Of a stretch of DNA of 18,794 nucleotides, positions 665 to 18,794 are shown piece after piece; within the stretch, counting starts at the first letter, position 1; every line of letters starts with the position of its first letter. Under the pieces are notes generated by a model. That model was not told the origin of the DNA. It saw only the letters and a list, made by a program, of their open reading frames with translations, and did not search any database. The position numbers and the translations under genes are program-made. This DNA is from Candidatus Thorarchaeota archaeon (lineage in GTDB: Archaea; Asgardarchaeota; Thorarchaeia; Thorarchaeales; Thorarchaeaceae), in NCBI GenBank assembly GCA_048884785.1, contig JBHLQM010000036.1:1-18794 (forward strand), given 5' to 3'.

Positions 665-719
665 ATATAATCGTTCCATTCAATTTCTATTGAAGTTCGA
701 CTTCGAGAACCCTCGAAGT
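665..719 (-). promoter_or_regulatory. Putative promoter (BRE/TATA-like GAACGATTATAT on the minus strand) plus upstream palindrome ACTTCGAG-AACC-CTCGAAGT (700-719)
   Basis: Perfect 8-bp inverted repeat at 700-719. The block aligns without gaps to 2017-2071 (42/55 identical by manual count). Confidence 0.65.
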
Positions 720-732
720 ATACTAAAATGCA

Positions 733-752
733 ACTTTTAGAACTCTCGAAGT
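733..752. repeat. Second, degenerate copy of the palindrome (ACTTTTAG-AACT-CTCGAAGT)
   Basis: Right arm identical to the 700-719 copy, left arm 6/8; offset 33 bp. Confidence 0.7.
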
Positions 753-800
753 CGCAATAACACTCTACTTTGGCGCAATTATCCCGATTATTCACTACTC

Positions 801-1982: not shown

Positions 1983-2016
1983 TCTGAACCACCTTCTATA
2001 AATATGTCAAATAGGA

Positions 2017-2071
2017 ATATAATCGTTCTATTCCAATTCCATAGAAGCACCACTTCGAGTATTATCGAACT
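2017..2071 (-). promoter_or_regulatory. Putative promoter of the 801..1982 gene; paralogous to 665-719, with palindrome copy ACTTCGAG-TATT-ATCGAACT (2052-2071)
   Basis: Identical 12-mer ATATAATCGTTC and the same 35-bp offset to the palindrome as in 665-719; TATA-like element about 35 nt upstream of the ATG. Confidence 0.65.
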
Positions 2072-2083
2072 CATAAACACACC

Positions 2084-2956: not shown

Positions 2957-3094
2957 TACAAGCGAGTATAGGTTATGACAAGCTCTACCACAGAATTATC
3001 CTATCGTTTCTTACTAAAAGTAACTAAAATATTTTTGTTATTATTATTTTTTAACTTACTATTCCATTCTTTGAAACCTGAAGGAGAAATAGTT

Positions 3095-3118
3095 GGGCTC
3101 TAGCTTAAGCTAGAACCC
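3095..3118. other. Inverted repeat GGGCTCTAGCTTAAGCTAGAACCC (terminator hairpin or operator)
   Basis: Perfect 16-bp palindrome TCTAGCTTAAGCTAGA at 3099-3114 flanked by GGG/CCC; about 25 nt downstream of the 3144 stop. Confidence 0.5.
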
Positions 3119-3143
3119 GTAAGGACCAAAGCAAAGCAATAGT

Positions 3144-3347
3144 CTAGGTGCTGTCCACCTTCGCCAATTTACCATTGTAGTGTGAGCAAGTAATTACACC
3201 TGCTGTGACAAAAACTAGACCTCCAAGTATGGTGGCAAAGATCCAGTCTATTGCACCAGTACTGTAGTAGGTGCACATATTCGCACCCACGAACACAAAG
3301 ATCAATATCCCAAGTACAGCGACCAATAGTTTCTCATTTTTCTTCAA
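3144..3347 (-). CDS. Small two-TM membrane protein, hypothetical
   Basis: 67 aa with two hydrophobic segments; its TTG start overlaps the TGA of the upstream gene (TTGA 3344-3347), suggesting translational coupling. Confidence 0.65.
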   Translation of the reverse strand: MKKNEKLLVAVLGILIFVFVGANMCTYYSTGAIDWIFATILGGLVFVTAGVITCSHYNGKLAKVDST

Positions 3348-3631
3348 TCGGCATCATCTCCCACGGAATTTTTTTCCATATCAATTTCAGTGATTTCGCT
3401 AAATCTCAAGTATATCCTCAGGATCCCATAACTTCCCCTGACCTCAAGTATCTCAGGTTCCACAAATGAAGCCTGTTCAAGTTCTCCAATTGTTCCTTCT
3501 ATAATGATACCTTCATTTTCATTCTTAGCTGTATGCCAGTGTTTATTGGAATCGAGTTCAATAGAGAAGTCGCGTTCACCATTTTCGTTTACTTGAATAG
3601 CCATCTTGAATGCCTCATGACAATCATTCAC
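3344..3631 (-). CDS. Small archaeal hypothetical protein (beta-rich)
   Basis: FSIEL...IIIEGTIGEL...F.E..ILEVRGSYGILRI resembles a conserved uncharacterised archaeal family (recollection only); start GTG 3631 or ATG 3604. Confidence 0.65.
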   Translation of the reverse strand: MNDCHEAFKMAIQVNENGERDFSIELDSNKHWHTAKNENEGIIIEGTIGELEQASFVEPEILEVRGSYGILRIYLRFSEITEIDMEKNSVGDDAD

Positions 3632-3698
3632 CGGTATTTGTGATAACGTTTAATTAACGCGAATGCGAAATTTTCATCAAGGATGCGAAAAAATTACT

Positions 3699-4472
3699 AT
3701 GGCAAGACACGAAGAAGATTCTGAGGTTTCCAAGGTTCTTTTTGAACTTGCCAGCAATAGGAGGGCAAGTATTCTTTTCGAGTTGGAAAAGCAGGGTCTC
3801 AAGATGAAGCAGATAGCCAAAGCTCTTGACATGAATGTCACTGAAACTTTCAGGCACCTTCAAAGACTTGGTGATGCAAAACTTGTTGAGAAGCAAGTTG
3901 ACGGAACCTATGAAGCAACCCCTCTGGGCAACCTAGCTGTTGGTCTTCTTTCAACTATGAATTTTATTCTGAAACACGGGGACTATTTCTTGGAACACGA
4001 TCTTTCTCGTCTTCCATATGAGTTTCTCAATAGGCTTGGGGAACTATCAAATGGAGAGTTTTGTGAAAACACACTTGTCAATTTCAATCGAGTCAGAAGT
4101 ATGGTTTACGACGCAGATGAGTTCATTTGGGCGATGGCTGAGCAAAGTGAATCGAGTCATGTTCAGGTAACAAACGAGAAGGTTTCAAAGGGGCTAGAAT
4201 TCAAGTTTATTATGCAGGAGGACCTTGCAAAGACAATTAAGGTTGTCCCAGAAGTAGAGCATCTAAAGCAACGTAGGTTTCTTGAACGTATCTGTGTCAC
4301 GTTCTTAATAACTGAAAAAGAGTCGGTCGTAAACTTTCGCAGACGTGATGGTGAAATGCATTACATTGGCTTTTTTGGGAAAGATGACAAGTTCCGTAAA
4401 TGGACGCAAGACCTCTTCATGTACTATTGGGAACGCGCTGAACCGTGGTATCTAGAAATGCAGAATAAGTGA
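3699..4472 (+). CDS. Winged-helix transcription regulator (ArsR-like HTH plus DUF1724/FilR1-middle-like domain)
   Basis: LFELASNRRASILFEL...MKQIAKALDMNVTETFRHLQRLGDAKLVEK..DGTYEATPLG wHTH; YFLEHDLSRLPYEFLNRLGEL and KFRKWTQDLFMYYWERA match this common archaeal architecture. Start set at ATG 3699 (track ORF begins at 3663). Confidence 0.85.
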   Translation: MARHEEDSEVSKVLFELASNRRASILFELEKQGLKMKQIAKALDMNVTETFRHLQRLGDAKLVEKQVDGTYEATPLGNLAVGLLSTMNFILKHGDYFLEHDLSRLPYEFLNRLGELSNGEFCENTLVNFNRVRSMVYDADEFIWAMAEQSESSHVQVTNEKVSKGLEFKFIMQEDLAKTIKVVPEVEHLKQRRFLERICVTFLITEKESVVNFRRRDGEMHYIGFFGKDDKFRKWTQDLFMYYWERAEPWYLEMQNK

Positions 4473-4531
4473 GGGCAATCACAGTGATCATCAACGGTTT
4501 TGTGAAACTATTATCCACATCTATTGAAATA

Positions 4532-6058
4532 TCATACATTGACTATTGGAAGTTGTATCACGAATCTTGCGCCTTTTGAAAAGTCGCCGCTAATTCTATC
4601 TTCTACCCATATCCTGCCGTTACATAGGTCTATTATTTGCTTTGCAAGAGTGAGCCCAATTCCCGAAACTGCTGTTTTTCCTTCATCTAGTCTGCCTAAG
4701 ATACCACCCTTCTTGCTATCAGGAACTCCAACACCTCTATCTTCAACTGTCACCTGAAGCAAGGATTTGTCTGTGGATAATCCTGCATTTATATCCAGAA
4801 CTACAGGTTCTTTGGTATCGTATTTAACCGCATTGTGAAAAAGATTATAGAATACATCGACGAGGAATTCGGTTCCACGAACAAAGTAGGCGCCTGGACT
4901 GATGTTGGAGTTAACCATTATTCTCCTGCTGGGAAATGTACTCTTGATAGAAGCAATAGCCTTGGAAACTGGTATGTAGATATCTGTTCGAACTTGCTGC
5001 ATTGCCGATGATTTGGCATCTGATAATCTCCTTACCCTAGAAATAAGATCTGCAGCTCTTTGTAGCTGCGAGATAGCGCTTTCAAGAAGCATCTTGCTAT
5101 GAGGTGTAATCTTCTCCTGGAAGGATATGAGCTCGAGTCCAGTCATCATGCCTTGGTGAATGTTATTCAAGTCATGGCTCATTAAGTCTATCAGAAACTC
5201 AGTGAACTTCCTTGCATCCTCAGCTTCTTTCTGAGCGCTATGCCTTCTTGTTACCTCAATGAAAATTGCAAGGACAGCGAGCTCTCCTTGGTAAACGATT
5301 CTTGCCCCATGCACTTCAAACCATAGAATTTCTCCATCTTTTCTGATGGCTCGAAATTCGAAAGATTCAGGAACTGGTTTCTTCTCAAGCCTATCTCGGA
5401 ACCTGGCAAAAAAAGGAGCTCGGTCTTCAGGATGGACTAGTTTGTATACTTCTTCTTCCTTCCAATGCAGCATTTCCTCTCTTGAGTAGTACAGCATTTT
5501 TTCGATTGCATCATTCACATATACTATCCTCAATGGGTTCGCCTGGGCAATCGTTATCCCCAAAACTGGTTGCCCTGTGAGGGCCCGATATTTTTCCTCA
5601 CTTTCCGTCAGGGCTTCAAGAACACGAACTTGATCTGAAATATCTCTTGCAAATCCTAGTGCGCCCAGCGGTGTTTTCTTTTCATCTCTCAGCAATAACC
5701 ATGAACTCTCTAACCAGATAGATGCTCCATCCTGGTGTTTTGCCTCAACCCGAATCATTCGGGGTATTTGAAGAATGGCGTCGATAGAATCCATTGATAG
5801 GGCATCAGTGAACGCTTTGCTTACAAGTGAAAATGATTCCGGCGTGATAAGTTCATCTAATGTCTTTTTCAACATCTCTTCTTGCGAATATCCAAGAAGA
5901 TTTCCTGCCATTGGACTTAAGTATGTCAGTTTGAGATTCATATCAATTGCCCATATTATCTCGGCAAATCTGTCCTGGGCTCTTCTTTTTTCTAATTCGG
6001 CAAGAAGAATTCTGTATTCTTCTTCTGATATGAAGGGTTTCATGAATTCGTATTTCAT
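4532..6058 (-). CDS. Cytoplasmic PAS-PAS sensor histidine kinase
   Basis: Two PAS/PAC domains (YLSP...LLGYSQEEM; VHPEDR...RKDGEILWFEV), H-box DLMSHDLNN, N-box NLFHNAVKY, G1 EDRGVGV, G2 SGIGLTLAK; no TM segment. Confidence 0.93.
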   Translation of the reverse strand: MKYEFMKPFISEEEYRILLAELEKRRAQDRFAEIIWAIDMNLKLTYLSPMAGNLLGYSQEEMLKKTLDELITPESFSLVSKAFTDALSMDSIDAILQIPRMIRVEAKHQDGASIWLESSWLLLRDEKKTPLGALGFARDISDQVRVLEALTESEEKYRALTGQPVLGITIAQANPLRIVYVNDAIEKMLYYSREEMLHWKEEEVYKLVHPEDRAPFFARFRDRLEKKPVPESFEFRAIRKDGEILWFEVHGARIVYQGELAVLAIFIEVTRRHSAQKEAEDARKFTEFLIDLMSHDLNNIHQGMMTGLELISFQEKITPHSKMLLESAISQLQRAADLISRVRRLSDAKSSAMQQVRTDIYIPVSKAIASIKSTFPSRRIMVNSNISPGAYFVRGTEFLVDVFYNLFHNAVKYDTKEPVVLDINAGLSTDKSLLQVTVEDRGVGVPDSKKGGILGRLDEGKTAVSGIGLTLAKQIIDLCNGRIWVEDRISGDFSKGARFVIQLPIVNV

Positions 6059-6110
6059 ATACTCACTTTAGGATGCATTCGCGCTTATTAGACTTAATCC
6101 GATGCTATTT

Positions 6111-6899
6111 CTAGACCAAAGTAATTATCATTCCCCATTGACCGATACTGAGTTGGAGTTCATCTCGGTATTCCTTTACATATCCCTCTTCAATTCTCAT
6201 GTTTGAATCGAGCTCTACTTGTCTTATCTGGTCATTCCATAGAACAAGTTTGACTGCTCCAGTATCATCTGACAATATTGCATCAGCCACCTTCAATTCT
6301 TGGCTTGTCTTCCTAGAAGTGACTGTTCTCGTATCCGAAATATTTTCCACTAATCCCTCTACAACCACCCTTTGCTGTTTGTCTTGCAGATCCCCAATTT
6401 TCGACATTGCTCGAGGAAATCCATTTGAAATTCGTTTTTCATAGTAATTCCCCCTCCAGGTGGGATAATCATTTGTAATTCCGATGTGAATGAATCCCAC
6501 CTTCATATAAAATGGATTAGTTCTTGTATTCCATTCAGGAGTTCCCAATGCCCATAAGTCTGCAGAGGGATAAGCTTCCCACATTAATTCAAAGACTCTC
6601 ATACCAATGCCCCTTCTCATGTATGCCGGGTCAACCCAAATTCTCTCACAGACTTGATATCCAGGTCCTCTGTTTCCTGCAATGAATCCCCCAATTACAT
6701 TTTCATCGCAGAGAATCTTGTAGTATTGTAGATAATGGTTTTTTATTCGGCTTTGGTTCCATTCAATCGAATCATAGCCTGGCGGACCCCCTGGGCCTGG
6801 AGCACCTACTTCTGAATCAGAGTCGAATGCTCTCTTGCATGTTTTCGTTAATATTTCAACATCCTCTAATTCGGCTCTTTGCAGCGTAATATCAGTCAC
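6111..6899 (-). CDS. GNAT N-acetyltransferase fused to a C-terminal SSB/RPA-type OB fold
   Basis: aa 1-~157: GNAT (GPPGYDS; motif A IWVDPAYMRRGIG; TPEWN...FYMKVGF). aa 165-262: KIGDL...VVVEGLV...RTV...VADAILSDDTGAVKLVLWND...IEEGYVKEYRDELQLSIGQWG, which follows the crenarchaeal-SSB/RPA OB pattern. GTG start. Confidence 0.88.
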   Translation of the reverse strand: MTDITLQRAELEDVEILTKTCKRAFDSDSEVGAPGPGGPPGYDSIEWNQSRIKNHYLQYYKILCDENVIGGFIAGNRGPGYQVCERIWVDPAYMRRGIGMRVFELMWEAYPSADLWALGTPEWNTRTNPFYMKVGFIHIGITNDYPTWRGNYYEKRISNGFPRAMSKIGDLQDKQQRVVVEGLVENISDTRTVTSRKTSQELKVADAILSDDTGAVKLVLWNDQIRQVELDSNMRIEEGYVKEYRDELQLSIGQWGMIITLV

Positions 6900-7017
6900 A
6901 GTAGAAACGCCCCCGAAAGTTCAGACACAACTGTGCTATCAGGTCTTCTCTCAATCTTGACGAGCTATGCATCGACCCACCTGCTACATATGCTTCTCCT
7001 TCTACAGAAAGTGTTCA

Positions 7018-7767
7018 CTACCGACGCATATGTTTGAAGATGTCCAGAAGCTCTGAGATGTGTTCAATAACAATTACATCTTCTGGTGCCTTTTCGCTTT
7101 CCTCCAGACCACACCATACCAGCAAAATTGGAAGAAAATCGGCTCTTTTTGCCGCAGCTATATCATGCTTAATCCTATCCCCAATATATGCACACTTTCT
7201 TGGATTTATCCCAAGCTTAGACGCTACCTGAAGTAGCATATATGGTGATGGCTTCCTATACCCAGGCACACACGAGTATTCAACTGAATCAAATAGATGA
7301 AGAACTCCATCGGATTCAAGTCTTGGAAGAGGGTCGTTTCTCCTATTCGAGGCAACTCCTAGTTGATACCCGCTTGAGCGGAGGGTTTCCAGTACCTCTC
7401 TACATGGCTCTAGGAACCTAGGCATCATATTAGGGAGAGCTTTAAGCCATTCACTATGTGCATAGGAGGCCATTTCATTGAGATCTCCTTTCACTCCCAA
7501 TTCTTTCAAAATCAATCGGTCGTATTCTACTGAATCATCATATGATGGTAGCCAGTGCGGTTCCTGATTTGCTTCCACCAAATTTCTATCAAACAAATCA
7601 TCAATTCGATTAATAGTATCTTCAATGGTTTGATCCGAATATTCTTCAAACTCATGAAGCTCAAGTTCCTTGAGAATGAATCTCGTCATGACTGTGGTTT
7701 CTCTTGGCGTGTCATAGAGAATACCTCCCATGTCAAAAACCAGTGCACGGATATCCTCAAGACTCAT
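7018..7767 (-). CDS. HAD-superfamily hydrolase (subfamily IA-like)
   Basis: Motif I VFDMGGILYD, motif II ASN, motif III KPSP, motif IV YIGDRIKHD. Start set at ATG 7767 (track ORF begins at 7809). Confidence 0.88.
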   Translation of the reverse strand: MSLEDIRALVFDMGGILYDTPRETTVMTRFILKELELHEFEEYSDQTIEDTINRIDDLFDRNLVEANQEPHWLPSYDDSVEYDRLILKELGVKGDLNEMASYAHSEWLKALPNMMPRFLEPCREVLETLRSSGYQLGVASNRRNDPLPRLESDGVLHLFDSVEYSCVPGYRKPSPYMLLQVASKLGINPRKCAYIGDRIKHDIAAAKRADFLPILLVWCGLEESEKAPEDVIVIEHISELLDIFKHMRR

Positions 7768-7921
7768 GATGTCCCCCTTTGGGTTGAATCTTATAAGTAC
7801 ATCATTCATTCTGTTCTTTTTCCCCTTACCATGGACATGATTGCGCGCACTATTGCGCTATTCTTCTTGTATTATAGGCAGCAAGTATTATCTGAGTTGA
7901 ATCTAATTGGAGGTAGGATTC

Positions 7922-8695
7922 ATGCAGAATGAAATTAATTTTGAACTAGCGAAAAAACTGTTGGAGAATCCCGCATTTCCACGAACAACGAAATACGATC
8001 CTGAATGGATGGTTGGTTTGGATCTGGGTTGCCCAACTTTTTGGTTGCTTGAGCGATTATGTGAAGAAATGAACTTTGAATCAGATATGCGCGTTCTTGA
8101 CCTGGGTTGCGGGAAAGCCGGCGGGTCAATTTTCTTGGCAAGAGAGTTCGGAGTTCAAGTCTGGGCTGTAGACCTTGGAGTTAGTCAGAGTGAGAACTGG
8201 GAACGCATTAAAGAAAAAGGCCTGGAAAACCAAATCTTTCCGCTTAGAGCCGACGCCAGAGAAATGCCATTCCCGAAAGATTTCTTTGATGCCATTATAT
8301 GTGTGAATTCTCTCTTCTTCTTCGCTACGGATGAAATCTATCTCCGGCATCACCTAATTCCAATGGTCAAACCTGGCGGTCAAATAGGAAGTGTGGTTCC
8401 AGGGTTTTACAAGGATTTTGACGGAGAATTACCCATGAACCTACCAGAGCATTTGAAACGATATTGGGCATCTTGTATGCTATATACATGGCACTCTGCA
8501 GAATGGTGGCGGCGTCAGTGGCTTAAGACTGAAGCTGTGGAGGTTGAAGTTGCAGATAACTTCCCGGATAAAGAAGGATATCAGACGTATCTTGATTGGG
8601 AGAGAATAATAGGATATCCGCAGAAGATTGCAGAGGACGATAGGGGCAGGCATATCACATTCTCGCGTTTGGTTGCTCGCCGATTCATGACCTAA
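7922..8695 (+). CDS. Class I SAM-dependent methyltransferase
   Basis: Motif I VLDLGCGKAG, VWAVDL, ADAREMPF...FDAI, VKPGG; GGAGGT ribosome-binding site before ATG 7922. Confidence 0.9.
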   Translation: MQNEINFELAKKLLENPAFPRTTKYDPEWMVGLDLGCPTFWLLERLCEEMNFESDMRVLDLGCGKAGGSIFLAREFGVQVWAVDLGVSQSENWERIKEKGLENQIFPLRADAREMPFPKDFFDAIICVNSLFFFATDEIYLRHHLIPMVKPGGQIGSVVPGFYKDFDGELPMNLPEHLKRYWASCMLYTWHSAEWWRRQWLKTEAVEVEVADNFPDKEGYQTYLDWERIIGYPQKIAEDDRGRHITFSRLVARRFMT

Positions 8696-8835
8696 AAACG
8701 GATTGAAGCTCCGAACTATCTGAGTCTTTTTTCACTTGAGAATCAATCACTAAACTACCTTGAGTTATGTTTATCAATCAACCATAGGGAGCCGTGTGGC
8801 TTGATTACATTTTGTAATCAAAGGAGACCGAAAAA

Positions 8836-9207
8836 ATGAACTCTGAACAAGCAAAGAATCGGATTTCGACTCTTTGGATTTTTGTAATGTTCAATATGCT
8901 TGCTGCAGACATTCTAGGATTTATGCTGCCTGGAGCTATTGAGCAGATAATAGACAATCCCCTTGGCATCACGGCTGAATTTATGCTGATTGCGGCAGTG
9001 ATGATTGAGGTTCCAATTCTCATGATATTTCTTTCAACGATGCTTCAGTACAAGCTGAACCGTATTGCAAACTTCATTGCTGTTGCATTCACTATTTTCT
9101 TTATAGTAGGTTTAGGTTCAGCAAGCTTAGTCTACTATTTCTTCATGACAATAGAAGTTTTAGCCATGCTGTTAATTGCATGGTCAGCATGGAAGTGGAA
9201 AGAATAA
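8836..9207 (+). CDS. Four-TM membrane protein, DUF6326-like
   Basis: ISTLWIFVMFN..ADIL, EVPILMIFLS..L..K.NR..N and YYFF.TIEV...AWKW patterns; AAGGAG ribosome-binding site. Confidence 0.75.
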   Translation: MNSEQAKNRISTLWIFVMFNMLAADILGFMLPGAIEQIIDNPLGITAEFMLIAAVMIEVPILMIFLSTMLQYKLNRIANFIAVAFTIFFIVGLGSASLVYYFFMTIEVLAMLLIAWSAWKWKE

Positions 9208-9220
9208 TAGGAATATCTTT

Positions 9221-9255
9221 GCAGCTGCACTCGCAGCTGCGTTCAATTCTTTTTG
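9221..9255 (+). terminator. Putative terminator hairpin GCAGCTGC-ACTC-GCAGCTGC followed by a T-rich tract
   Basis: GCAGCTGC is self-complementary, so the two copies form an 8-bp stem; about 13 nt after the 9207 stop, followed by TTCTTTTT; lies between convergent genes. Confidence 0.55.
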
Positions 9256-9375
9256 ATGAACCTAATTTCTTGTTCCTAAATACATTCTTCATCCGATAGT
9301 TCTTTTCTCAGTCACATAGATGGGAAACATCTCCCCGTGATTGGCTGTACGCGGACTCTTGCCCTAATATGAATA

Positions 9376-10881
9376 TTAGAGCTCTTCGAAAGTCATTTTC
9401 CCTTTGACCAAACGTGATACAATCTTGGGCGCTTCTTTGAGTGCTATTCTTACTTGATTCATACTATCCCTATCTCTAATGGTGGCGGTGCCATCCTCCA
9501 GTGTCTGGTAGTCAATTGTAATGCAGAATGGTGTTCCAATCTCATCTTGACGTCTATATCTTCTTCCAATAGAACCTGATTGGTCGAAAAATGCAATGAT
9601 TCCAGTATCACTGATTTCATCATAGGTTTCTTGTGCAGGACCCAGAAGTTCAGGTTTGCCCATCAATGGGAATACTGCAACTTGGAGTGGAGCAACATGT
9701 GGGGCAAATTTCAACCATGTTCTCTCTTGATCCTCCACATATACATTATCAATAAGACAGAAAAGAGGTCTATCTACGCCGAATGCTATTTCCAAGACCT
9801 CAGGCACAACTACTTCATTTTCAACTTTCACCGACAGCTTCTCCTTCGAGTATTCCTGATGTCTTGTTAAATCATAGCTGCCTCTATCATGAACACCGCA
9901 ACATTCAACCCATCCAAAGCTTTGCGTGCTGATTTCGATATCCCATGCATCAGCCGCGTAGTGTGCCCTTTCCGTTGGCAAGTGCTGACGCAGCCTAATG
10001 GAATTACTGGGAAAACCCATCCCTTTGAAAATGGAATATGCCAAATGAACACACCAAGCATAGGCTGCTTTCCCGAAGTATTTCTTCTTTAGAGCCTCAC
10101 CTACACTAATATCCAGAACCTCTTCACTCTTCTTTTGCTGATTCTGATACGGAAGGAGCGGCATTTTCATGTCCGCAATTGTTTGAAAGGGCTCCCACTC
10201 ATGCTCATCCTTTTCAAGTAAGAAAATCTGTCCTTCAACCTGAGTAAATTCTCTTAATCGCAGCATTCCCTGTCTTGGGGATATCTCATTCCTGTATGCC
10301 TTGCCTATTTGGAAGACGGACATTGGTAGCTTGTCTCTAAAGAATGTCAGAAAACGTTTGAATAGAAGATAGGTCGTTGTGGCTGTTTCAGGCCTCATAT
10401 ATGCCTCCTGTTCAAGACCTAAACGAGTCTGCAACATTAAATTGTATTGAGATGCCGGGCCAAGTCTGCCTTTACACACTGGGCACACAATGCTATTCTT
10501 CTCTATTATCTCGGTAAGTTCTTCAAGCGTAGCTCCAGCTCTTTGCGCTTCTGGTGCTTGCTCTGAGATTAATGTGTCTGCCCTAAACGCTTGTTCACAC
10601 TTGCTGCATTTTACCACAGGATCAACAAAGCCATCAAGATGTCCTGACGCCTTCCAGACCATTGCTGGAGAGACGGTTGGACATTCAACTTCCCAGAATC
10701 CAGCTCGAACAAATTTGGAGCGAATAAGGTCCTCTAATCGGTTCTTCAAGAGCTTCCCAAGCGGTCCAAAATCATAGAATCCGGCGCTGCCACCATATAT
10801 CTCAGGCGACGGGCCCCAAATGAAACCTCTCTTTCTGCACAGACCCGTAATCACTTCACTGAAGTCTCTCTCTGAAGACAT
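9376..10881 (-). CDS. glyS: Glycine--tRNA ligase (class II, archaeal/eukaryote-type homodimer)
   Basis: RGFIW..PEIYGG.AGFYDFGPLG, WKASGH, MRPETA, QIGKAYRNEISPRQGMLRLREFTQ, ERAHYA, GWVE..G.HDRGSYDL, anticodon domain SGSIGRRYRRQDEIGTPFCITID; CxxC...CxxC insertion. Confidence 0.97.
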   Translation of the reverse strand: MSSERDFSEVITGLCRKRGFIWGPSPEIYGGSAGFYDFGPLGKLLKNRLEDLIRSKFVRAGFWEVECPTVSPAMVWKASGHLDGFVDPVVKCSKCEQAFRADTLISEQAPEAQRAGATLEELTEIIEKNSIVCPVCKGRLGPASQYNLMLQTRLGLEQEAYMRPETATTTYLLFKRFLTFFRDKLPMSVFQIGKAYRNEISPRQGMLRLREFTQVEGQIFLLEKDEHEWEPFQTIADMKMPLLPYQNQQKKSEEVLDISVGEALKKKYFGKAAYAWCVHLAYSIFKGMGFPSNSIRLRQHLPTERAHYAADAWDIEISTQSFGWVECCGVHDRGSYDLTRHQEYSKEKLSVKVENEVVVPEVLEIAFGVDRPLFCLIDNVYVEDQERTWLKFAPHVAPLQVAVFPLMGKPELLGPAQETYDEISDTGIIAFFDQSGSIGRRYRRQDEIGTPFCITIDYQTLEDGTATIRDRDSMNQVRIALKEAPKIVSRLVKGKMTFEEL

Positions 10882-10946
10882 AACCGATAACCGAAAGCGT
10901 GCTAGACTGTTGAAGTCTTAAATCTATGCTCTTGTGATAGTAGCTC

Positions 10947-10954
10947 AAAAAAAA
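10947..10954 (-). terminator. Archaeal oligo(T) terminator (T8) after the Roadblock gene
   Basis: A8 on the + strand, about 25 nt downstream of the 10980 stop. Confidence 0.55.
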
Positions 10955-10979
10955 GATGCAGCAGTTGTAGATTCGTTAA

Positions 10980-11366
10980 CTACTTCTCTAGAAGCTTGCC
11001 AATTTCCTTGGCGTATTTTCTCATCTGAGTGACAGCAAGTCCCATCGAAGTGAGATCTTTTGCTGAACCCATGATTAGAAACTCACCTGCGTGGGATAGA
11101 ACAACGAATCCATCCTTTCCTCTAATTACAACTTCATAAAGATCACTGAGCTCAAGTTTTTGAGCTGCCATCTCTCCCTGCACAAGCAGAGCTGCGCTAA
11201 CAGCAGCCATCAGGTCAGGATCAGCATCAGATTCCTCGGTGGCAAAATATGCAAGTTTCACTCCTTGCTTGCTGACAACGGCAATGGCATCTAAATCTGC
11301 ATAATTAGTCAATCCCATTAGGAGCTCAACGAGCTCTTTCTCTTTCTCTGGATCAATACTAGACAT
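10980..11366 (-). CDS. Roadblock/LC7 (MglB/LAMTOR-like) domain protein
   Basis: 128 aa; AIAVVSKQG...D.DLMAAVSAALL..GE.AAQKL....L.EVVIRGKDGFVVL..AG...MGL is the standard Roadblock pattern; its GGTGA ribosome-binding site overlaps the upstream TAG. Confidence 0.92.
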   Translation of the reverse strand: MSSIDPEKEKELVELLMGLTNYADLDAIAVVSKQGVKLAYFATEESDADPDLMAAVSAALLVQGEMAAQKLELSDLYEVVIRGKDGFVVLSHAGEFLIMGSAKDLTSMGLAVTQMRKYAKEIGKLLEK

Positions 11367-11377
11367 TTTTCTATCAC

Positions 11378-12289
11378 CTATTTAGCGACAAGCTTTCGTT
11401 TTTGCTGGCCTTTTTTGTCAGCTGTTTTTGCATCTCCTTCATCGATCTCTGATTTAAAGAAGCTAATCAAATCACCTAGTCTTTCTTTCATCTCAGTCTT
11501 TATTGGGCTCAGAATCGCGTCAGGAGTCCCTTTAAGAAGTTCAATACCAAGTACTCGTCCATCCTTGACGATTACTCTCGGTATGAAGCCTTCTGCCATG
11601 AAAGTGCCTTCAGGTGGGTCTCTAACCTTTTCGAACTTCCTCTCAATTTTTTCCTGACCAAATACTGACAGCTTGTGTTCTGCAACAGTGTATAGCTCAT
11701 TATACACAATCAGGAGTTCTCTCTGATACCCTTCAGGAGGTTCTTCCTGCTCAAGCTCGGCAATCATTGAGGAAACCTCAGAAGGATCAATTCTAGGACC
11801 AGCGGGAATTGCTGTTGGCGCTGGTCTTGGCGGCGATGTAGCAACCTTTGCTGTAGGCTTAGGTGTCGGTACTTCGGCCTTGGGCTTGACATCCTCTTCA
11901 ACTTTTACTGGTGGAGGTCTCTCAATAGTGACTTCTGCAGTTCGTGTTTCTTTGGGAATTGGGGGTCGCGGCGGCGGAGGTGCATCACCTGGTTTCATCA
12001 CTTTCGTAGCAGCAGTAGATCCATTCAGTGCCGAAAAGAATGTCGGAGGTTCTTCTCCTTCATCAAGTGGTCTCACTTTGAAATGAAATCCATACTCTGT
12101 CCTCAGATTCGTAGCCACTCTGGCACCAATGAATTTTCTGCGAATTCCTGCTTGGCTCCCCTTCCAGAGATAGATGCTTTTTGTTTCATCATCTACTACG
12201 CATACTACTTTCGTGGAATCAAGGTCTTCCTTTGATAGCTCCACTTCGTTTAGCGTCCCATCCTCTAAGACTTCATAGCCAGTAACCAT
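11378..12289 (-). CDS. Single-gelsolin-domain protein with Pro-rich linker and C-terminal unknown domain (Asgard 1DGelX-like)
   Basis: aa 1-89: LDSTKVVCVVD...IYLWKGS.A..RRKF.GAR.A..L...V..LDEGEEPPTFFSAL matches the gelsolin/villin core; aa ~90-167 are Pro/Thr/Lys-rich; aa ~168-260 look globular (PPEGYQRELLIV.NELY...PEGTF......PRVIVKDGRVLGIELLK). Confidence 0.85.
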   Translation of the reverse strand: MVTGYEVLEDGTLNEVELSKEDLDSTKVVCVVDDETKSIYLWKGSQAGIRRKFIGARVATNLRTEYGFHFKVRPLDEGEEPPTFFSALNGSTAATKVMKPGDAPPPPRPPIPKETRTAEVTIERPPPVKVEEDVKPKAEVPTPKPTAKVATSPPRPAPTAIPAGPRIDPSEVSSMIAELEQEEPPEGYQRELLIVYNELYTVAEHKLSVFGQEKIERKFEKVRDPPEGTFMAEGFIPRVIVKDGRVLGIELLKGTPDAILSPIKTEMKERLGDLISFFKSEIDEGDAKTADKKGQQKRKLVAK

Positions 12290-12530
12290 TACTTTTCACT
12301 ACGCCCATACTTGATTGTTGACCTGAGGCTGCTAGCTGTCAGTGATATTCGGTTATCTCTCTCAGCAGTATAATACTCTTGTTGTGTTGTATCCATCAAG
12401 ATTTGACTTATTCTAAGATTAATCTCAACCAAATGTCGCACTGTAACCTTGAGCTAAGACAGAAAGAATGTCGACCTTCAGGATGTTGTTGTTAATAGTC
12501 AACGGAGACCTGGAGCGAATCAAGTTTCTG

Positions 12531-12550
12531 TCCTCGAGAAATCTCGAAGT
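12531..12550. repeat. Fourth copy of the palindrome (TCCTCGAG-AAAT-CTCGAAGT)
   Basis: Right arm identical to CTCGAAGT, left arm 6/8, same 4-nt spacer; intergenic between thiQ and the gelsolin gene. Confidence 0.6.
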
Positions 12551-12581
12551 TATTTGACTTGCAAGAGAATGAATTGGATGA

Positions 12582-13637
12582 CTATTCTGTCCCAATGAGA
12601 TCGATTCCATACGGATTAATCGCAATGTTCACTCTGTGTCCGGGCTGGAGCTTGGCACTTTTCTCAGAGCTCGGTATTGATGTTTCAATCAGTTGCTTTT
12701 CAATCTCTAGCATTACTCTATAATGACCAACCTGAGGAGTTATGCCAATTATTGTTGCAGGTAAAGATTTCGTAGAATTATTCTCTATTCTTACGTCCTC
12801 AGGCTTCACAGAAAGCGTTACTTTGCTACCAACCTTTGCTGCCCCCTCTATTTGAATTGTCAAATTGCCAATTTTGACATCGAGCATACCAGCGGCTACG
12901 TTTTCAACAATCCCCCGTAGAATACTGCCACCTCCAATGAAAGTTGCAACGAACTCATTTGCAGGATTCCTGTACAGTTCCTCTGGCGTACCTGTTTGGA
13001 TGATTCTGCCATCATTCAAAATCGCGATTCTGTCTGATATCGCGAAAGCCTCTGACTGACTATGGGTAACATAAACAGTTGAAACACCAAGCTCTTGTTG
13101 TATCGACTTTATTTCCTCTTGAAGCCTCTGACGAAGCTTTGGGTCTAACGCACTAAGTGGTTCATCCAAGAGCAACAGCTCAGGCTCCAACGCTAATGCT
13201 CGGGCCAATGCAATTCTCTGTCCCTCTCCTCCACTAATCTCATTGATTTTTCGATGAAGCAGTTTTCTGACTCCCACAAGTTCTGCAAGTTCTTCCACTC
13301 GCCGAACCGCAGCTCTATGCTCCCAGCCAGCAACATCGAGAGCGAAGGCAATGTTTTGATATACAGTCATATTTGGAAAGAGCGCCACCGATTGAACTAC
13401 CATTCCTATTTTTCTCTCTCGAGGTGGCATCGTTGTAACATTTCTTTCATCAAATAGGAGGACACCGCCGTCCGGGTTTAGGAATCCCGCAATCATCCTG
13501 AGTGTAGTTGTCTTTCCTGACCCAGAGGGACCTAATAGAGCCATCATCTCTCCATCTTCAATTGTCAAGCTAATCGGTCCTATGCTAGTCCCATCTGGAA
13601 ATCTTTTCCGAAGGTCCTTAATCTCGATTCGAACCAT
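12582..13637 (-). CDS. thiQ: ABC transporter ATP-binding subunit (thiamine transporter by context; C-terminal TOBE-like domain)
   Basis: Walker A GPSGSGKTT, signature ISGGEGQR, Walker B LLLLDEP, H-loop YVTH; TAATG overlap with the permease gene. Confidence 0.85.
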   Translation of the reverse strand: MVRIEIKDLRKRFPDGTSIGPISLTIEDGEMMALLGPSGSGKTTTLRMIAGFLNPDGGVLLFDERNVTTMPPRERKIGMVVQSVALFPNMTVYQNIAFALDVAGWEHRAAVRRVEELAELVGVRKLLHRKINEISGGEGQRIALARALALEPELLLLDEPLSALDPKLRQRLQEEIKSIQQELGVSTVYVTHSQSEAFAISDRIAILNDGRIIQTGTPEELYRNPANEFVATFIGGGSILRGIVENVAAGMLDVKIGNLTIQIEGAAKVGSKVTLSVKPEDVRIENNSTKSLPATIIGITPQVGHYRVMLEIEKQLIETSIPSSEKSAKLQPGHRVNIAINPYGIDLIGTE

Positions 13638-15301
13638 TACAGTGTCCCTCCATATCCATTTTGAGAGAACTTCTCGATCAATATGAACGCTGCAACACAG
13701 AAACCAACTAACACCAATGAAGCCGCTCCAGCATCAACAAACTTCCTTACTGCTAAGTCACGATAGATGAGTATTGAGAGCGTGAAATTCTCGGGCCGGG
13801 CTAGAAATATAGTTGCTGACATCTCACCTATTGCCATGGCGAATGAAAAAACTGCGGCAACAATTATGCCCTGCGCTAATAATGGTAGTTCAACAAAGAA
13901 AAGCCTCTGGAGGGTATTTGCTCCCAAGGATTCCGCTTGCTCCAATAGTGCCTGATCTATCTTGGACATGGCTATTTCTAAAGCTCTCGCACTGAATGGA
14001 ATCCCTATAATGGTCTGAGCGATTACTATGAGTATCCAAGGATTGATAGTAAGACCCAGAGGCACTGCCAATGCTATCATCAATCCATACGCGATAGTGA
14101 TTGCAGAGACTCCCAATGGCAGTAGCGTAATCATCGACGATAGATTCGCAAGTCCCCTGATTTTTTCTCTCTGTGTATATGCCAAAATTGTTCCCAGTAT
14201 TACTGAAAATACTGTAGCCAGTGACGCATAAAATAATGAGTTAATGAGGGGCACCAAGCCACCATTAATCCCTGGAGTCCCAAGATTCACAAATCCGTTT
14301 AAAGTGAGTTGTCTTGTGTTTGGGTCATATATTGCTGCTCGAATAATCGATATCATAGGTCCAAAGCTTAGTAGCAGGAGAATGAAGGAATAAAACACAA
14401 TGAGAACTCTTGCTGTTTTTGAGAGCTCCCCGAGTGTGTATGTACGTGCATACCCCGTCTGACCAGATGTTTCATGTCTTCCGGTTCCAAGGCGAACATA
14501 TGAATATGCAAGAGTAATAGTAATGAGTATCTGCAAAAGAGCCAATGAGCTTGATTCTCCATAATCAAAGAAACGGAATGCATTCCAAATTTGAACTTCA
14601 ATGGTTAGGTAGGCACCCTCACCCAACGCTAGAACTATTGGAAATGACATAAAACAGAAAAGAAACGTCAAAATAGAAGCTGCAAATACAGAAGCACGAA
14701 TGTGAGGAATGATTATTCGCTTCAACTTCTGAACTGTATTTGCCCCAAGAACTTCTGCCATTTCTTCATACTCAGGATTTAGTTTCTCGAGTGCTGCTGA
14801 CACAATCAGAATGAATAGGGGGATGTTGTAGAATGCGTGTGCCAAGATTATTCCAGTGAATCCACTGGCCAAATCAAGAACCGATTCTTGGCTATTTAGT
14901 ATGAATCTGGCCATTGTGTCAAGGATACCTCCACTTCCAAACATTTGGAGGAATCCAACTACAACAACAATTGGTGGTAGTACAAAGGGCACGATAAGCA
15001 GTGCGCGAAGGAGTGATTTTCCGGTAAAGCTTAGTTTCGCCAAAAGAAATGCCCCTGGCAATCCCAAAATAAGAGCTAATAGCGTGCTCAATACTGCTTG
15101 AATGAGGGTGAATGATAGTATTCGATGTGTTACTACGGACGTTATCACTTCTTCAAACTTCGAGCCAGGTCCTACAGTTAGTCCTTGCACAAGAACGATA
15201 CCTACTGGGATGATAAGGAAAAAGACAAGCAATAGAAAGGGAATCGAGAGAACTGCGTACTGCAAGAACCTTCTCTTTTCCACACAGCATTCCTCTTTCA
15301 T
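13637..15301 (-). CDS. thiP: ABC transporter permease with two fused TM domains (ThiP/FbpB type)
   Basis: FTLIQAVLSTLL...GLPGA, PFVLPPIVV, ILAHAFYNIP, two EAA loops (EEMAEVLGA, LEQAESLGA); ATGA overlap with thiB. Confidence 0.88.
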   Translation of the reverse strand: MKEECCVEKRRFLQYAVLSIPFLLLVFFLIIPVGIVLVQGLTVGPGSKFEEVITSVVTHRILSFTLIQAVLSTLLALILGLPGAFLLAKLSFTGKSLLRALLIVPFVLPPIVVVVGFLQMFGSGGILDTMARFILNSQESVLDLASGFTGIILAHAFYNIPLFILIVSAALEKLNPEYEEMAEVLGANTVQKLKRIIIPHIRASVFAASILTFLFCFMSFPIVLALGEGAYLTIEVQIWNAFRFFDYGESSSLALLQILITITLAYSYVRLGTGRHETSGQTGYARTYTLGELSKTARVLIVFYSFILLLLSFGPMISIIRAAIYDPNTRQLTLNGFVNLGTPGINGGLVPLINSLFYASLATVFSVILGTILAYTQREKIRGLANLSSMITLLPLGVSAITIAYGLMIALAVPLGLTINPWILIVIAQTIIGIPFSARALEIAMSKIDQALLEQAESLGANTLQRLFFVELPLLAQGIIVAAVFSFAMAIGEMSATIFLARPENFTLSILIYRDLAVRKFVDAGAASLVLVGFCVAAFILIEKFSQNGYGGTL

Positions 15302-16416
15302 CCAGTCATTATGGCGTCATATTCATCTAGCCAAGATTCTAGATTCGAAGCTATTTCGGCGCTTGAAAATAGTTCGTTCAGCAAATTAATGTCATCTGGA
15401 TGCAACGCATAATCAAAGGCTGGATCGAAGTCAACATCCATGTTTGCTGGAAACATCCACTGATTTAATGATATATAGCCCTGAACTGCAGGTGTCAAGC
15501 AATACTCAATGAAACTCTGGGCAAGTGATGGATTTGGGCCATTCTTAACCAAACCTATCCCCTCCACCTGCATCCAAGCATAATCGCTTCCTTCAAAATG
15601 TATTGGTGCTATAGCTGTATTGGGCGTTCCACCCGTATAATAGGCATCGTATGCAGGATCTGTCCCATAGCTAACAAGTAAATGCTTTGTTGGATCCGAA
15701 TCCCATTTCGTCCAAGCTTCGGTCCATCCCTCTTGAACATCAATACTGCCTTTCACACTGCTCCACCACTGAGTCCAGTCCTCTTCCATTAGTTTGTCAT
15801 AGACTGCTATTTGACCAAGCAAGAACGCCAGGCCGGGGCTACTGAAATGTGGATTTTCAGTTACCAAATATGAAGAAAGATCTGACAACCCAAGAAAAGT
15901 CATGTTCTCAATCTGCGGATGCGATGTTGCATTGATTTCCGAAGGTCTGTAAATGACTGTTACTAGTCCAAAATCAAATGGAACAATGTAATGCTCAGGA
16001 TCGAGGGCGTTTATTATAGAGCCTTCAATTAGGTCAAGGTTGGCCGGCGTGAATCGTTCAAGAACGCTTTTTGCGATGGCCTGCAAAATCAGTATATTGT
16101 CTATCCCAATGACCACATCCGCAACTGGATTTTCAGCCTCAGCCACAAGCCTTGAAACAATCCCATTTGCATCTGTCGAAAGGCGTTCAATCTTAATATC
16201 GACTCCATACTGCGCTTCAAAAGGAGAGAAGACGATATTGTCAATGGTGTCGGGGTCATCACCCCATAACATGAAACTATCATAGGTGTACACAGTAAAG
16301 GTGGGTCGTTGATATGTGAGGATGCCATATGATGCGATGGCGATAATTATGACTACTGCAATAGCCACAACTACCTTCTTTGGATCCCTACGAACAGGAT
16401 ACTCCGACTCTGACAT
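15298..16416 (-). CDS. thiB: Thiamine/TPP ABC transporter substrate-binding protein, N-terminally membrane-anchored
   Basis: ThiB motifs TVYTYDSF, ADVVIGIDN, PFDFG, ENP..SSPGLAFLL, GW.EAW, VSYGTDPAY, QVEG, QWMFPAN; a single N-terminal TM helix. Confidence 0.92.
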   Translation of the reverse strand: MSESEYPVRRDPKKVVVAIAVVIIIAIASYGILTYQRPTFTVYTYDSFMLWGDDPDTIDNIVFSPFEAQYGVDIKIERLSTDANGIVSRLVAEAENPVADVVIGIDNILILQAIAKSVLERFTPANLDLIEGSIINALDPEHYIVPFDFGLVTVIYRPSEINATSHPQIENMTFLGLSDLSSYLVTENPHFSSPGLAFLLGQIAVYDKLMEEDWTQWWSSVKGSIDVQEGWTEAWTKWDSDPTKHLLVSYGTDPAYDAYYTGGTPNTAIAPIHFEGSDYAWMQVEGIGLVKNGPNPSLAQSFIEYCLTPAVQGYISLNQWMFPANMDVDFDPAFDYALHPDDINLLNELFSSAEIASNLESWLDEYDAIMTG

Positions 16417-16444
16417 CTAGACTGCATCCTTTATATTGGTGTTA

Positions 16445-16459
16445 TACAACTCTGTTATA
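16445..16459. promoter_or_regulatory. Candidate ThiR operator TACAAC-TCT-GTTATA in the thiB/thiR divergent promoter
   Basis: Imperfect palindrome (5/6) overlapping a TATA-like TTGTATAA on the minus strand about 26-33 nt upstream of the thiB ATG. Confidence 0.5.
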
Positions 16460-16504
16460 GGAAATCACTCGAATAAATAGTTTGTTGCAGGAGTGTAGAA
16501 GTAA

Positions 16505-17434
16505 ATGCGTCCGCCGTGTGAACTTGTTCAACGTGAATACTTACCTGTGCTGAGATCCCGCCTGTCAAAGAAACTCAGGGAGCGTGGCTATTCTCAAAAT
16601 GATATTGCCGAATGCCTTGGTCTAACACAGGCGGCTGTGAGTAAATACCTCGCGCAAGATTATTCGCCAAATCCACTCAATGAAACAGTTGATATCACTG
16701 CCTCTCGGATGGCAAATATGATTATTCAAGAGAATTCAACGTCAGATTTGCTGGTAAAGGAAGTATGTGAAGCATGTATGAGCCTTCGTATTGGTGCCGA
16801 TATTTGCATGATGCATAGAGAATCTGTGCCATCTCTGCGCGATCCACAGTGCGAGATTTGTGCAAGTTTACTTGGTGGAGAGGACAAGTTTCTAGTTAAG
16901 AGAGCAAAGATTCTTGAAGAGATGACAGAGGCACTCAGACTAATCTACAAATCCAATTCATTTGCCAAGCTTGTGCCACAAGTCAGGGCAAATCTTGTCG
17001 CATGTAATAAGGATGCATCAAACATATCGGATGTAATAGGTGTACCCGGACGGATAACATTGATCGAAGGGAAGGCACGAGCTTTAGTTGGCCCACGATT
17101 TGGTGCATCAAAACATATGGCTCTACTGCTTCTAGAGGTCAGGAAGCTCTGGTCTGATGTCTTCGCTTGTCTATGTCTTAGTGGAAGAAGCGAAATCATA
17201 GAAGCTGCAAGAGAGGAAGGCGTGAGAATCATTGGCATCAAGGAATCTCAAAGCGATCCAGTTATGATTGCAGGACTTGTTCGAGAATCTAAAGCAAAAA
17301 GAAGACAAGGGATTGCAACTGGGATCCATGTTCCCGGAGGCATTGGAGTCGAGCCCATTCTATACCTCTTCGCAAAGAGCCCCCTCGAACTGAGTTCAAT
17401 AAGTGAGGCGCTGGGCTCACATCAGAGGTTCTAG
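16505..17434 (+). CDS. thiR: ThiR-type transcription regulator (XRE HTH, Cys-rich linker, ThiN-like thiamine-phosphate-binding domain)
   Basis: MRPPCE...LP..R......L...GYSQ.DIA..LGLTQAAVSKYL HTH; C..C...C..H...C..C linker; ThiN-like L.PQVR.NL, GVPGRIT, FGASKH.A, GG.G.EP..Y; divergent from thiBPQ. Confidence 0.88.
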   Translation: MRPPCELVQREYLPVLRSRLSKKLRERGYSQNDIAECLGLTQAAVSKYLAQDYSPNPLNETVDITASRMANMIIQENSTSDLLVKEVCEACMSLRIGADICMMHRESVPSLRDPQCEICASLLGGEDKFLVKRAKILEEMTEALRLIYKSNSFAKLVPQVRANLVACNKDASNISDVIGVPGRITLIEGKARALVGPRFGASKHMALLLLEVRKLWSDVFACLCLSGRSEIIEAAREEGVRIIGIKESQSDPVMIAGLVRESKAKRRQGIATGIHVPGGIGVEPILYLFAKSPLELSSISEALGSHQRF

Positions 17435-17510
17435 CGACACTGTTTGTGTTACATCGATTTATCTTTCAAACTTCTTTAGTACCGACAGAGGCTTTATCGA
17501 GCTGACAACA

Positions 17511-18374
17511 ATGGTCGAAATTCGGCAAGGGAAACTAAGTGATTGCAAGGATCTACTCACCGTATATCAAACAACTAGATGGTATTATTTGGAACGAGAG
17601 AACGGATATACTACTGTAGAGGATGTAAAGGCGGAACACCAGCTGCTTGGATTTAAGAACTGGGGTTGGTTGGTTGCTGAAAAGGACGGCATTGTGATTG
17701 GTGAAATCGTCTTTAGGGTTGAGAAGAACCCTGTTGCAGGCAGAATTGGAATTATCCGGAGCTTGGATGTTGATGTTCGCCATCAAAAGACCACTATTGG
17801 AACTCAGCTAACGAGAGCTGCAGAAAAGACTCTCAAGGAGAAACGAGCCGCCAGAGTTGTTTCTATTTCCCCTCCTGAAGCCTACAATTTCTGGATGAAA
17901 GTAGAATACTTCGCCAGAGGAAGCTTGGTGAATATCAATGTAAATCCCGAGAGGGTAAAGAAAGTATCTCCAAAGGGTATGAAGCCATTTGAAATTAAGA
18001 ACCTTGATAAACTCCCGAAATCAATGGAGTTTTCAAATTTGGCGGTACCTGGGCTGATTGTAGAAATGATTAACCAAATCAAGATGAAACAGAGCTCAGG
18101 CAAGTTGTATGAATTCTATCAATCAGATGCCTTGATTGGGATTGGCGCTTTAAGAAGAGTAACACCAAAGCTCGCGGAATTCGTGATTGATTGCACTCTT
18201 CTTGGTAAAACGCATTTTGGTTTTCTTGTTGACAAAATTGCCACTGCTGCAATCAGACTTGGAGTGAAGAGAATTCTGAGCAAAATCCCCAAAGACCAGG
18301 TTGACCTCTACAGATCTGTTGGGCGCTGGTCTGTTGAGGATGCTCGTGAGATTCCTGTGACTCGTCTGCTTTGA
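17511..18374 (+). CDS. GNAT-family acetyltransferase, probably with a second degenerate GNAT-like domain
   Basis: MVEIRQG..., WLVAEKDG.VIG, motif A LDVDVRHQKTTIGTQL..AAE, AYNFW.K..Y. Start set at ATG 17511 because the track start (17403) overlaps thiR. Confidence 0.8.
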   Translation: MVEIRQGKLSDCKDLLTVYQTTRWYYLERENGYTTVEDVKAEHQLLGFKNWGWLVAEKDGIVIGEIVFRVEKNPVAGRIGIIRSLDVDVRHQKTTIGTQLTRAAEKTLKEKRAARVVSISPPEAYNFWMKVEYFARGSLVNINVNPERVKKVSPKGMKPFEIKNLDKLPKSMEFSNLAVPGLIVEMINQIKMKQSSGKLYEFYQSDALIGIGALRRVTPKLAEFVIDCTLLGKTHFGFLVDKIATAAIRLGVKRILSKIPKDQVDLYRSVGRWSVEDAREIPVTRLL

Positions 18375-18376
18375 AT

Positions 18377-18794
18377 CTATTCAGACTCCGCCGTAATTAT
18401 TGGAAAGACCCAATTCATGAAGACCAAGATTCCTCCAAGTATCCAGATGCTTGCGAGATTGGCATGCCAAATGAGCAGCGGAATGGTTGTCACTCCAAGA
18501 ATAAGGAAAGAGCCGACTAGAACCACAAGGTATACCAAATCGAGAATGAGAATGGGTTTTATTGGCTGGCCGTCTTTCTTTCGGTAGAGGGGTATCAAAA
18601 GGGCCGCTCCAATAAGAATTCCAAGACTCGCAATTTCCTCAATTTTCATATTAGCAAATCCGAATGAGGTTTCATCTTCTGCCGATTCTCCTTCGTCAGT
18701 TTCTACAACGACTTTAAGGATGTGCTGCCACTTTGAGTATATATTCGTATCAATGTAGAATGTGAATTCTCCTGGAGAAACATGAGTATAATTA
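18377..18794 (-). CDS. C-terminal part of a larger membrane protein (Ig-like beta segment followed by 3 TM helices); runs off the right edge
   Basis: The frame of track ORF 18377..18649 stays open to the window edge: NYTHVSPGEFTFYIDTNIYSKWQHILKVVVETDEGESAEDETSFGFAN-MKIEE... Confidence 0.8.
   Translation of the reverse strand, partial: NYTHVSPGEFTFYIDTNIYSKWQHILKVVVETDEGESAEDETSFGFANMKIEEIASLGILIGAALLIPLYRKKDGQPIKPILILDLVYLVVLVGSFLILGVTTIPLLIWHANLASIWILGGILVFMNWVFPIITAESE

Follow-up and report, generated by a model that had tools for sequence, protein, structure and literature searches.

A 1DGelX-type gelsolin gene and a Roadblock/LC7 gene form a conserved neighbouring pair across Asgard archaea

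Asgard archaea crawl and reshape themselves by means of an actin skeleton (PMC13716822), and the gene pair described here bears on how this actin may be controlled other than by calcium-regulated 2DGels and profilins. This pair, a gelsolin gene followed by a gene for a small Roadblock/LC7 protein, lies on the minus strand of an 18,794-nucleotide stretch of DNA from a Candidatus Thorarchaeota archaeon (contig JBHLQM010000036.1 of assembly GCA_048884785.1, positions 1 to 18,794; hereafter the window). Its first product resembles the 1DGelX protein of Thor SMTZ1-83 (Akil et al. 2020, PNAS; PMC7444086), which bound rabbit actin with a Kd of 7.7 µM, promoted nucleation at low ratios, inhibited polymerisation at 1:1 and severed filaments robustly, with all of these activities free of calcium control. 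Its severing was robust and gelsolin-like among the Thor gelsolins tested, with no calcium switch (PMC7444086). In TIRF microscopy (total internal reflection fluorescence), 1DGelX alone first severed filaments and afterwards drew the fragments together in short bundles; the protein resisted crystallisation, and its domain X was predicted to be a coiled coil and guessed to bind the filament side (PMC7444086). For Roadblock proteins, the asCOG survey describes a different operon, Roadblock-Rab-DENN. Within the limited literature examined, we found no published report of a gelsolin-Roadblock pair: the Asgard Roadblock paper (PMC10933270) contains 0 mentions of gelsolin, and the pairing is described neither in the crawling-motility paper (PMC13716822) or its preprint nor in the structural-modelling survey. 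Both protein families, 1DGelX and Roadblock/LC7, are known; their pairing is a new association.

In the window, the gelsolin gene (11378-12289, minus strand; 303 amino acids (aa), with its TAG stop at 11378-11380) and the Roadblock/LC7 gene (10980-11366, minus strand; 128 aa, ATG at 11364-11366, TAG stop at 10980-10982) are separated by a spacer of 11 nt (11367-11377, minus strand), so that the junction on the minus strand reads AAA TAG GTGATAGAAAA ATG. A Shine-Dalgarno-like GGTGA (11374-11378, minus strand) takes its first G from the gelsolin stop codon and ends 7 nt before the Roadblock ATG. The initial annotation of this DNA had reported both the 11-nt distance and the overlap of GGTGA with the gelsolin stop, and had proposed a discrete two-gene unit; reading the minus strand confirmed the first two points, and the third is borne out by unrelated flanking genes and by an operon-like layout kept across Asgard families. 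We favour the reading that the pair is a bicistronic operon, expressed as one transcript, whose products act together on actin, and a functional coupling of 1DGelX and the Roadblock protein is well supported.

The gelsolin assignment comes from matches to solved structures together with the predicted fold, since the Pfam Gelsolin model PF00626 does not match the 303-aa protein, though it matches homologs such as P0175. Sequence matches to known gelsolin domains were significant, with residues 1-88 matching the solved Thor ProGel (7c2f_B) at E 4.6e-14 in phmmer, which also returned 2DGel3 at 2e-7, horse gelsolin at 5.9e-4, and 2DGels from Thor, Loki and Heimdall. The AlphaFold2 model of the 303-aa protein (mean predicted local distance difference test score (pLDDT) 84.8, and 94-98 over residues 1-90) aligned with 7c2f_B in Foldseek at a target-normalised template modelling (TM) score of 0.92 and a root-mean-square deviation of 1.0 Å over 86 columns, with 36% identity between the gelsolin domain and ProGel in the structural alignment. 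This model shows the gelsolin fold, in which the beta sheet lies between one long and one short helix, and had 91 PDB matches at E ≤ 0.001, those listed being gelsolin-family chains. The architecture is a single gelsolin domain (12020-12289, minus strand; residues 1-90, with W42 and G44 conserved in an alignment of orthologs), then a Pro-rich linker (11795-12019, minus strand; residues ~91-165) that is predicted to be disordered (pLDDT 48-77), and then domain X (11420-11794, minus strand; residues ~166-290, with R190, G228, R238 and E250 conserved). The linker varies strongly in length and sequence among orthologs, and both domains that flank it are conserved. The linker of the window protein contains the motif PPPPRPPIP.

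Full-length identity of the gelsolin-X protein across Thorarchaeota is 65-75%, and the source genome carries one domain-X gene. From the shared architecture, this identity and the single domain-X gene, we infer that the 303-aa protein is an ortholog of the characterised SMTZ1-83 1DGelX. What the initial annotation called an actin-regulator-like gelsolin protein has the architecture of a protein type that nucleates and severs actin in vitro (PMC7444086).

The initial annotation had read the second gene as Roadblock/LC7, and its 128-aa product indeed matches PF03259 over residues 14-99 with 45.2 bits (E 8e-12), above the curated threshold of 23. Its nearest solved chains, 9jue_D (3.5e-9) and 7f8m_A (7.5e-8), are Roadblock/LC7-domain paralogs that fall outside the 1DGelX-linked orthogroup. 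The source genome holds 14 Roadblock matches, of which only one is of the gelsolin-linked type: against a profile of that type this gene reaches E 5e-61, and the paralog ranked second 1.6e-13. In a maximum-likelihood tree of 39 Roadblocks, one clade (support 95/98) contained all 14 gelsolin-adjacent Roadblocks together with 9 unlinked ones. Eight other Roadblock paralogs of the source genome were included in this tree; six of them form a separate group, and the remaining two sit on long branches of unsure placement, yet outside the gelsolin-linked clade. Judged by profile scores and tree position, the gelsolin-adjacent Roadblock is a dedicated, distinct Asgard-wide orthogroup. With a membership cut-off of E ≤ 1e-22, this orthogroup is present in 272 of 301 sampled Asgard genomes, and a 1DGelX-profile match (cut-off E ≤ 1e-10, at which gelsolin-only genes are also counted) is present in 292 of the 301. 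The protein is probably a dimer, by analogy with other family members. In families f14, f26 and f27 (numbered here to tell Asgard families apart), the orthogroup is duplicated, with one copy adjoining 1DGelX and the other not. Orthogroup members unlinked from 1DGelX repeatedly adjoin a prolyl-tRNA synthetase (ProRS) gene in three families (f5, f18 and f27; loci L116, L137 and L115), and are divergent from SRP54 in two sister families (f13 and f6; loci L124 and L125). Elsewhere in the source genome, four Roadblock/LC7 matches are clustered within ~4 kb (contig C27:20870-25096).

Within Thorarchaeota, 55 of 60 species-representative loci have the Roadblock ortholog (77-94% identical) directly downstream of the gelsolin gene and on its strand. 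Of the five exceptions, four are cut off by the end of their contig and one is interrupted by a stretch of N in the linker, so the pair adjoins in all 55 loci in which the downstream DNA is present. Further loci of family f1 have the Roadblock downstream in 30 of 30 cases, largely re-sampling the same species. Spacers in the Thor loci range from 11 to 146 nt (median 35) and none contains a T6 tract, and a purine-rich motif precedes the Roadblock start in most of these loci (27/56 by a strict pattern). In the source genome, only the domain-X-bearing gelsolin has a Roadblock neighbour. Conservation within Thorarchaeota by itself proves little, because synteny with the gelsolin gene extends there to the upstream ABC transporter, also in 55 of 60 loci.

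Beyond Thorarchaeota, we compared the best-match coordinates of the gelsolin and Roadblock profiles in 67 genomes, and found the Roadblock downstream, on the same strand and within less than 400 nt in 60 of them. Among the other seven, the Roadblock is ~800 nt away in one, the two genes are convergent in one and 124 kb apart in another, and they lie on different contigs in four. The pair is adjacent in at least 11 Asgard families, from Thorarchaeia to Odinarchaeia, among them family f3, which corresponds to Ca. Odinarchaeum yellowstonii (Roadblock 100% identical; spacer 2 nt). Measured exactly, the spacer spans 2-3 nt in f3 and 2 nt in f15; families f2, f12 and f21 have 21-55 nt, and f9 has 115-154 nt. 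When flanking open reading frames (ORFs) around the gelsolin gene were clustered across 17 families, the Roadblock was common to 11, and other real gene families to at most 3. Since the adjacency reappears across the phylum amid changing flanking genes, it goes far beyond chance, and the synteny on which the proposed unit depends is conserved across Asgard archaea. In two families, f17 and f20, neither domain X nor the Roadblock orthogroup was detected in the genomes searched (81-91% complete).

A third gene joins the pair in some families, where a vWA gene lies downstream of the Roadblock (f9 and f24); in f19 this gene lies near the gelsolin gene, with no Roadblock there. No vWA gene stands beside the pair in the Thor and Odin-type loci examined, which makes the gelsolin-Roadblock pair the more widely kept unit. 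An ortholog of the large vWA protein (~32% identity, E 8e-56) is encoded apart from the pair in the source genome, at contig C2:130552-131826, and the single actin gene of this genome is at C21:4523-5629.

In the mechanism that we propose, the first gene would supply a 1DGelX-type protein that nucleates and severs actin filaments, and the second a dedicated Roadblock/LC7 protein that would act with 1DGelX on the actin cytoskeleton. Direct binding of the Roadblock to 1DGelX is a real prospect, if somewhat short of an even one, and three considerations suggest it: 1DGelX severs and nucleates potently with no calcium switch, so that some other control is expected; Roadblock proteins are dimeric docking platforms; and no partner is assigned to the orphan folded domain of 1DGelX or to its long terminal helix. 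The contact site would most likely be domain X or its long amphipathic helix at the C-terminus, which would resemble the dynein intermediate-chain helix on an LC7 dimer, and binding would supply the control or localisation that calcium-insensitive 1DGelX lacks. The Roadblock may in addition offer a platform to a small GTPase whose gene lies in another part of the genome. The initial annotation had singled out the C-terminal domain as a candidate Roadblock-docking site, an idea that is weakly favoured because the only gelsolin with a Roadblock neighbour in the source genome is the one with domain X, and disfavoured by the gelsolin-X paralogs of Loki-type genomes that have no such neighbour. A complex prediction from the full-length 1DGelX alignment and two copies of the Roadblock alignment scored 0.00 and counts neither for nor against binding.

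Domain X itself is modelled as a confidently folded domain and lacks a recognisable relative. Modelled alone in AlphaFold2 (pLDDT 91.9), it is predicted to contain one helix (169-181), then a meander of five antiparallel strands (188-254), and finally the long helix of 34 residues (256-289). None of 51 domain-X members matched a Pfam family, and Foldseek against the PDB returned nothing at E ≤ 0.001. A wide VIA-align search matched the long helix alone (Z 4.9), and a second search related the beta core to a dCache sensor domain (Z 3.3). In the Atlas search, only Asgard clusters exceeded a TM score of 0.5, one of them joining SAP/HeH-type domains to a domain-X-like fold, followed by weaker GAPES4/dCache rows; a language-model search likewise returned Asgard clusters only, none of them named. 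The label 'no known fold' is provisional, and a 'new fold' is not established, because the long helix dominated the fold searches. We considered and rejected domain X as a cryptic Roadblock, that is, as the second Roadblock of a Ragulator-like heterodimer: hhalign gave a probability of 0.6%, and the model, which has no helix inside the sheet, likewise opposes a Roadblock or longin fold. We found no eukaryotic counterpart of domain X or of the gelsolin-Roadblock pairing.

Several observations weigh against a unit that acts together on actin. In about eight families, both genes are present but not linked (f5, f6, f7, f13, f16, f18, f19 and f22), and they are convergent in one f24 genome. In family f4 the Roadblock orthogroup occurs while domain X is not detectable, the one f8 genome shows the opposite, a domain X without any orthogroup member, and Loki-type genomes carry extra gelsolin-X paralogs without a Roadblock neighbour. 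Recombinant 1DGelX is active by itself in vitro (PMC7444086), so the Roadblock is not needed for its basic activity. The orthology with SMTZ1-83 1DGelX is drawn from architecture and single-copy status, and not from the SMTZ1-83 sequence itself. Finally, across the flanks of 17 families, none of the families sampled has a conserved GTPase gene close to the pair.

This last point bears on an explanation in which the two proteins are co-expressed and belong to one pathway without touching each other: the Roadblock would regulate a GTPase encoded elsewhere, as MglB does, and that GTPase would act on actin or 1DGelX. We regard this as unlikely though credible. Roadblock dimers such as MglB and Ragulator are established GTPase platforms (PMC10933270), and co-precipitation in L. 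ossiferum recovered an ARF GTPase together with Lokiactin and gelsolins (PMC13716822). The lack of a conserved GTPase gene near the pair counts against it; according to Tran et al. (2024; PMC10933270), however, GTPase genes of Asgard archaea do not generally share an operon with their Roadblock or longin partners, so a GTPase link is not decidable by gene order. Within the window, Pfam scans of the 18 large ORFs found no small GTPase of the Ras, Arf, Roc or MglA type, as the initial annotation had stated, and no cognate Ras-like GTPase of the kind that goes with an MglB-type regulator was found for this Roadblock, either in the window or as a gene family shared among the flanks of the 17 families. 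A more direct link is possible from one metagenome contig (L139, European Nucleotide Archive, 2097 bp), on which a single ORF (P0264, positions 730-2019) joins a Ras-family GTPase (PF00071, E 2e-34) to a C-terminal gelsolin domain; we treat it as only a lead, since the fusion lies on a single 2.1-kb contig and is without domain X. A GTPase input into the pair is possible, if unlikely. Still more doubtful is the full proposal that the Roadblock dimer is the missing control element of 1DGelX, docking on domain X or its helix and passing the state of a GTPase to severing and nucleation in an Asgard GTPase-to-actin pathway that would predate eukaryotes. The link from GTPase and polarity signalling to actin remodelling that the initial annotation put forward is likewise a hypothesis, and its pre-eukaryotic cytoskeletal control circuit is, at this stage, speculation.

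A different explanation holds that the adjacency is merely inherited gene order, with the two functions unrelated and the Roadblock serving another process. It can draw on the upstream ABC transporter, which is equally syntenic within Thorarchaeota, on the splitting of the pair in about eight families, and on the company that unlinked members of the Roadblock orthogroup keep, beside housekeeping genes such as ProRS, SRP54 and PfkB. Across the 17 families, however, turnover of the flanks is complete, yet in 11 of them the Roadblock keeps its place by the gelsolin gene; order and strand are kept, with spacers of 2-55 nt in most of the families measured exactly; and in f17 and f20 neither of the two was detected. 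We consider this explanation improbable, and return to the bicistronic operon as the favoured account of the pair. Very improbable, finally, is a Roadblock that acts as a structural dimeriser making 1DGelX bivalent for filament cross-linking or bundling, with no signalling role: solved Asgard Roadblock proteins do form dimers (PMC10933270) and the bundling of fragments by 1DGelX in TIRF requires more than one actin site, but that bundling occurred with 1DGelX alone, without any Roadblock (PMC7444086).

Gelsolin and Roadblock sequences also meet within one ORF of a second metagenome contig (L138, Joint Genome Institute, 1419 bp), where P0244 (positions 160-1311) combines a Loki-type 1DGelX gelsolin domain, a segment resembling a winged helix-turn-helix, and a Roadblock. 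We set this ORF aside as Rosetta-stone support, given that its two halves match only separate genes in 151 reference genomes and that its Roadblock part comes from another paralog group; it may be a rare fusion or a chimeric assembly.

The surroundings of the pair in the window also agree with what the initial annotation had described. A T8 tract (A8 on the plus strand; 10947-10954, minus strand) starts 25 nt past the Roadblock stop and is a candidate archaeal terminator; it is not conserved, a run of at least five T within 80 nt being found in just 10 of 56 Thor loci. The region of about 290 bp said to precede the gelsolin gene measures 292 bp (12290-12581, minus strand) between the gene for the ABC-transporter ATPase and the gelsolin gene, and contains an A/T-rich TATTATA ~75 nt before the gelsolin ATG and a GTGA 8 nt before it; we presume it to hold the promoter and 5' leader of the gelsolin gene. 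Both flanks are unrelated to the pair. Upstream lies a thiamine-type ABC transporter (12582-16416, minus strand) made up of an sfuA/thiB-like binding protein, a fused permease and an ATPase, divergent from a ThiN-domain protein with an N-terminal helix-turn-helix (16505-17434, plus strand); the transporter and the ThiN-domain protein together look like a unit for thiamine uptake and salvage with its own regulator. Downstream lies a glycine-tRNA ligase. A three-gene unit that would include this downstream synthetase was considered and dropped, the gene in the window being a glycine-tRNA ligase that is not kept downstream in other Thor loci. Two further large ORFs of the window (801-1982 and 2084-2956, both minus strand; 393 and 290 aa) had no Pfam or NCBIfam match.

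Taken as a whole, the pair points to a previously undescribed candidate for a partner or a regulator of actin remodelling in the microbes most closely related to eukaryotes. It also offers a concrete and cheap experiment, as both proteins are small and soluble, and 1DGelX has already been made in E. coli with working actin assays. Should the Roadblock alter 1DGelX activity or bridge 1DGelX to a GTPase, Asgard actin dynamics would have a first signalling input, and the Roadblock fold an unexpected use; should it have no effect, the pair would remain an unexplained case of conserved linkage.

Among known systems, the dynein light chain LC7/Roadblock offers a structural parallel, its dimer docking an amphipathic intermediate-chain helix of a cytoskeletal protein. 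By analogy, 1DGelX ends in a predicted helix of 34 residues (256-289) that might be bound in a similar way; to our knowledge, dynein is absent from archaea. The MglA/MglB switch of Myxococcus and Thermus likewise has a small Roadblock/LC7 protein (PF03259), one with ties to motility and to functions related to the cytoskeleton, but unlike that switch, the pair described here has no MglA-type GTPase adjacent or in the window, and the partner gene encodes an actin-binding protein. Ragulator/LAMTOR and the Asgard Roadblock dimers (PMC10933270; 7f8m, 9jue) belong to the same domain family, but the solved chains are paralogs outside this orthogroup, and unlike in the Ragulator heterodimer, domain X is no hidden Roadblock partner, as the hhalign comparison indicates. 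The gelsolin-Roadblock-vWA trio of Loki-type genomes shares both the gelsolin-X and the Roadblock orthogroups with the pair, with the vWA and actin genes of the source genome placed on C2 and C21 instead. A further close system is Thor 1DGelX (PMC7444086), whose paper uses the words roadblock and operon 0 times and leaves the downstream Roadblock gene unmentioned. That paper predicted a coiled coil for domain X, whereas in the AlphaFold2 model here the domain has one helix, a sheet of five strands and a second, long helix. Identity of the gelsolin domain to ProGel is 36% here and 35% in the 1DGelX paper, and the two proteins share the same architecture and the same source clade, with one such gene per genome.

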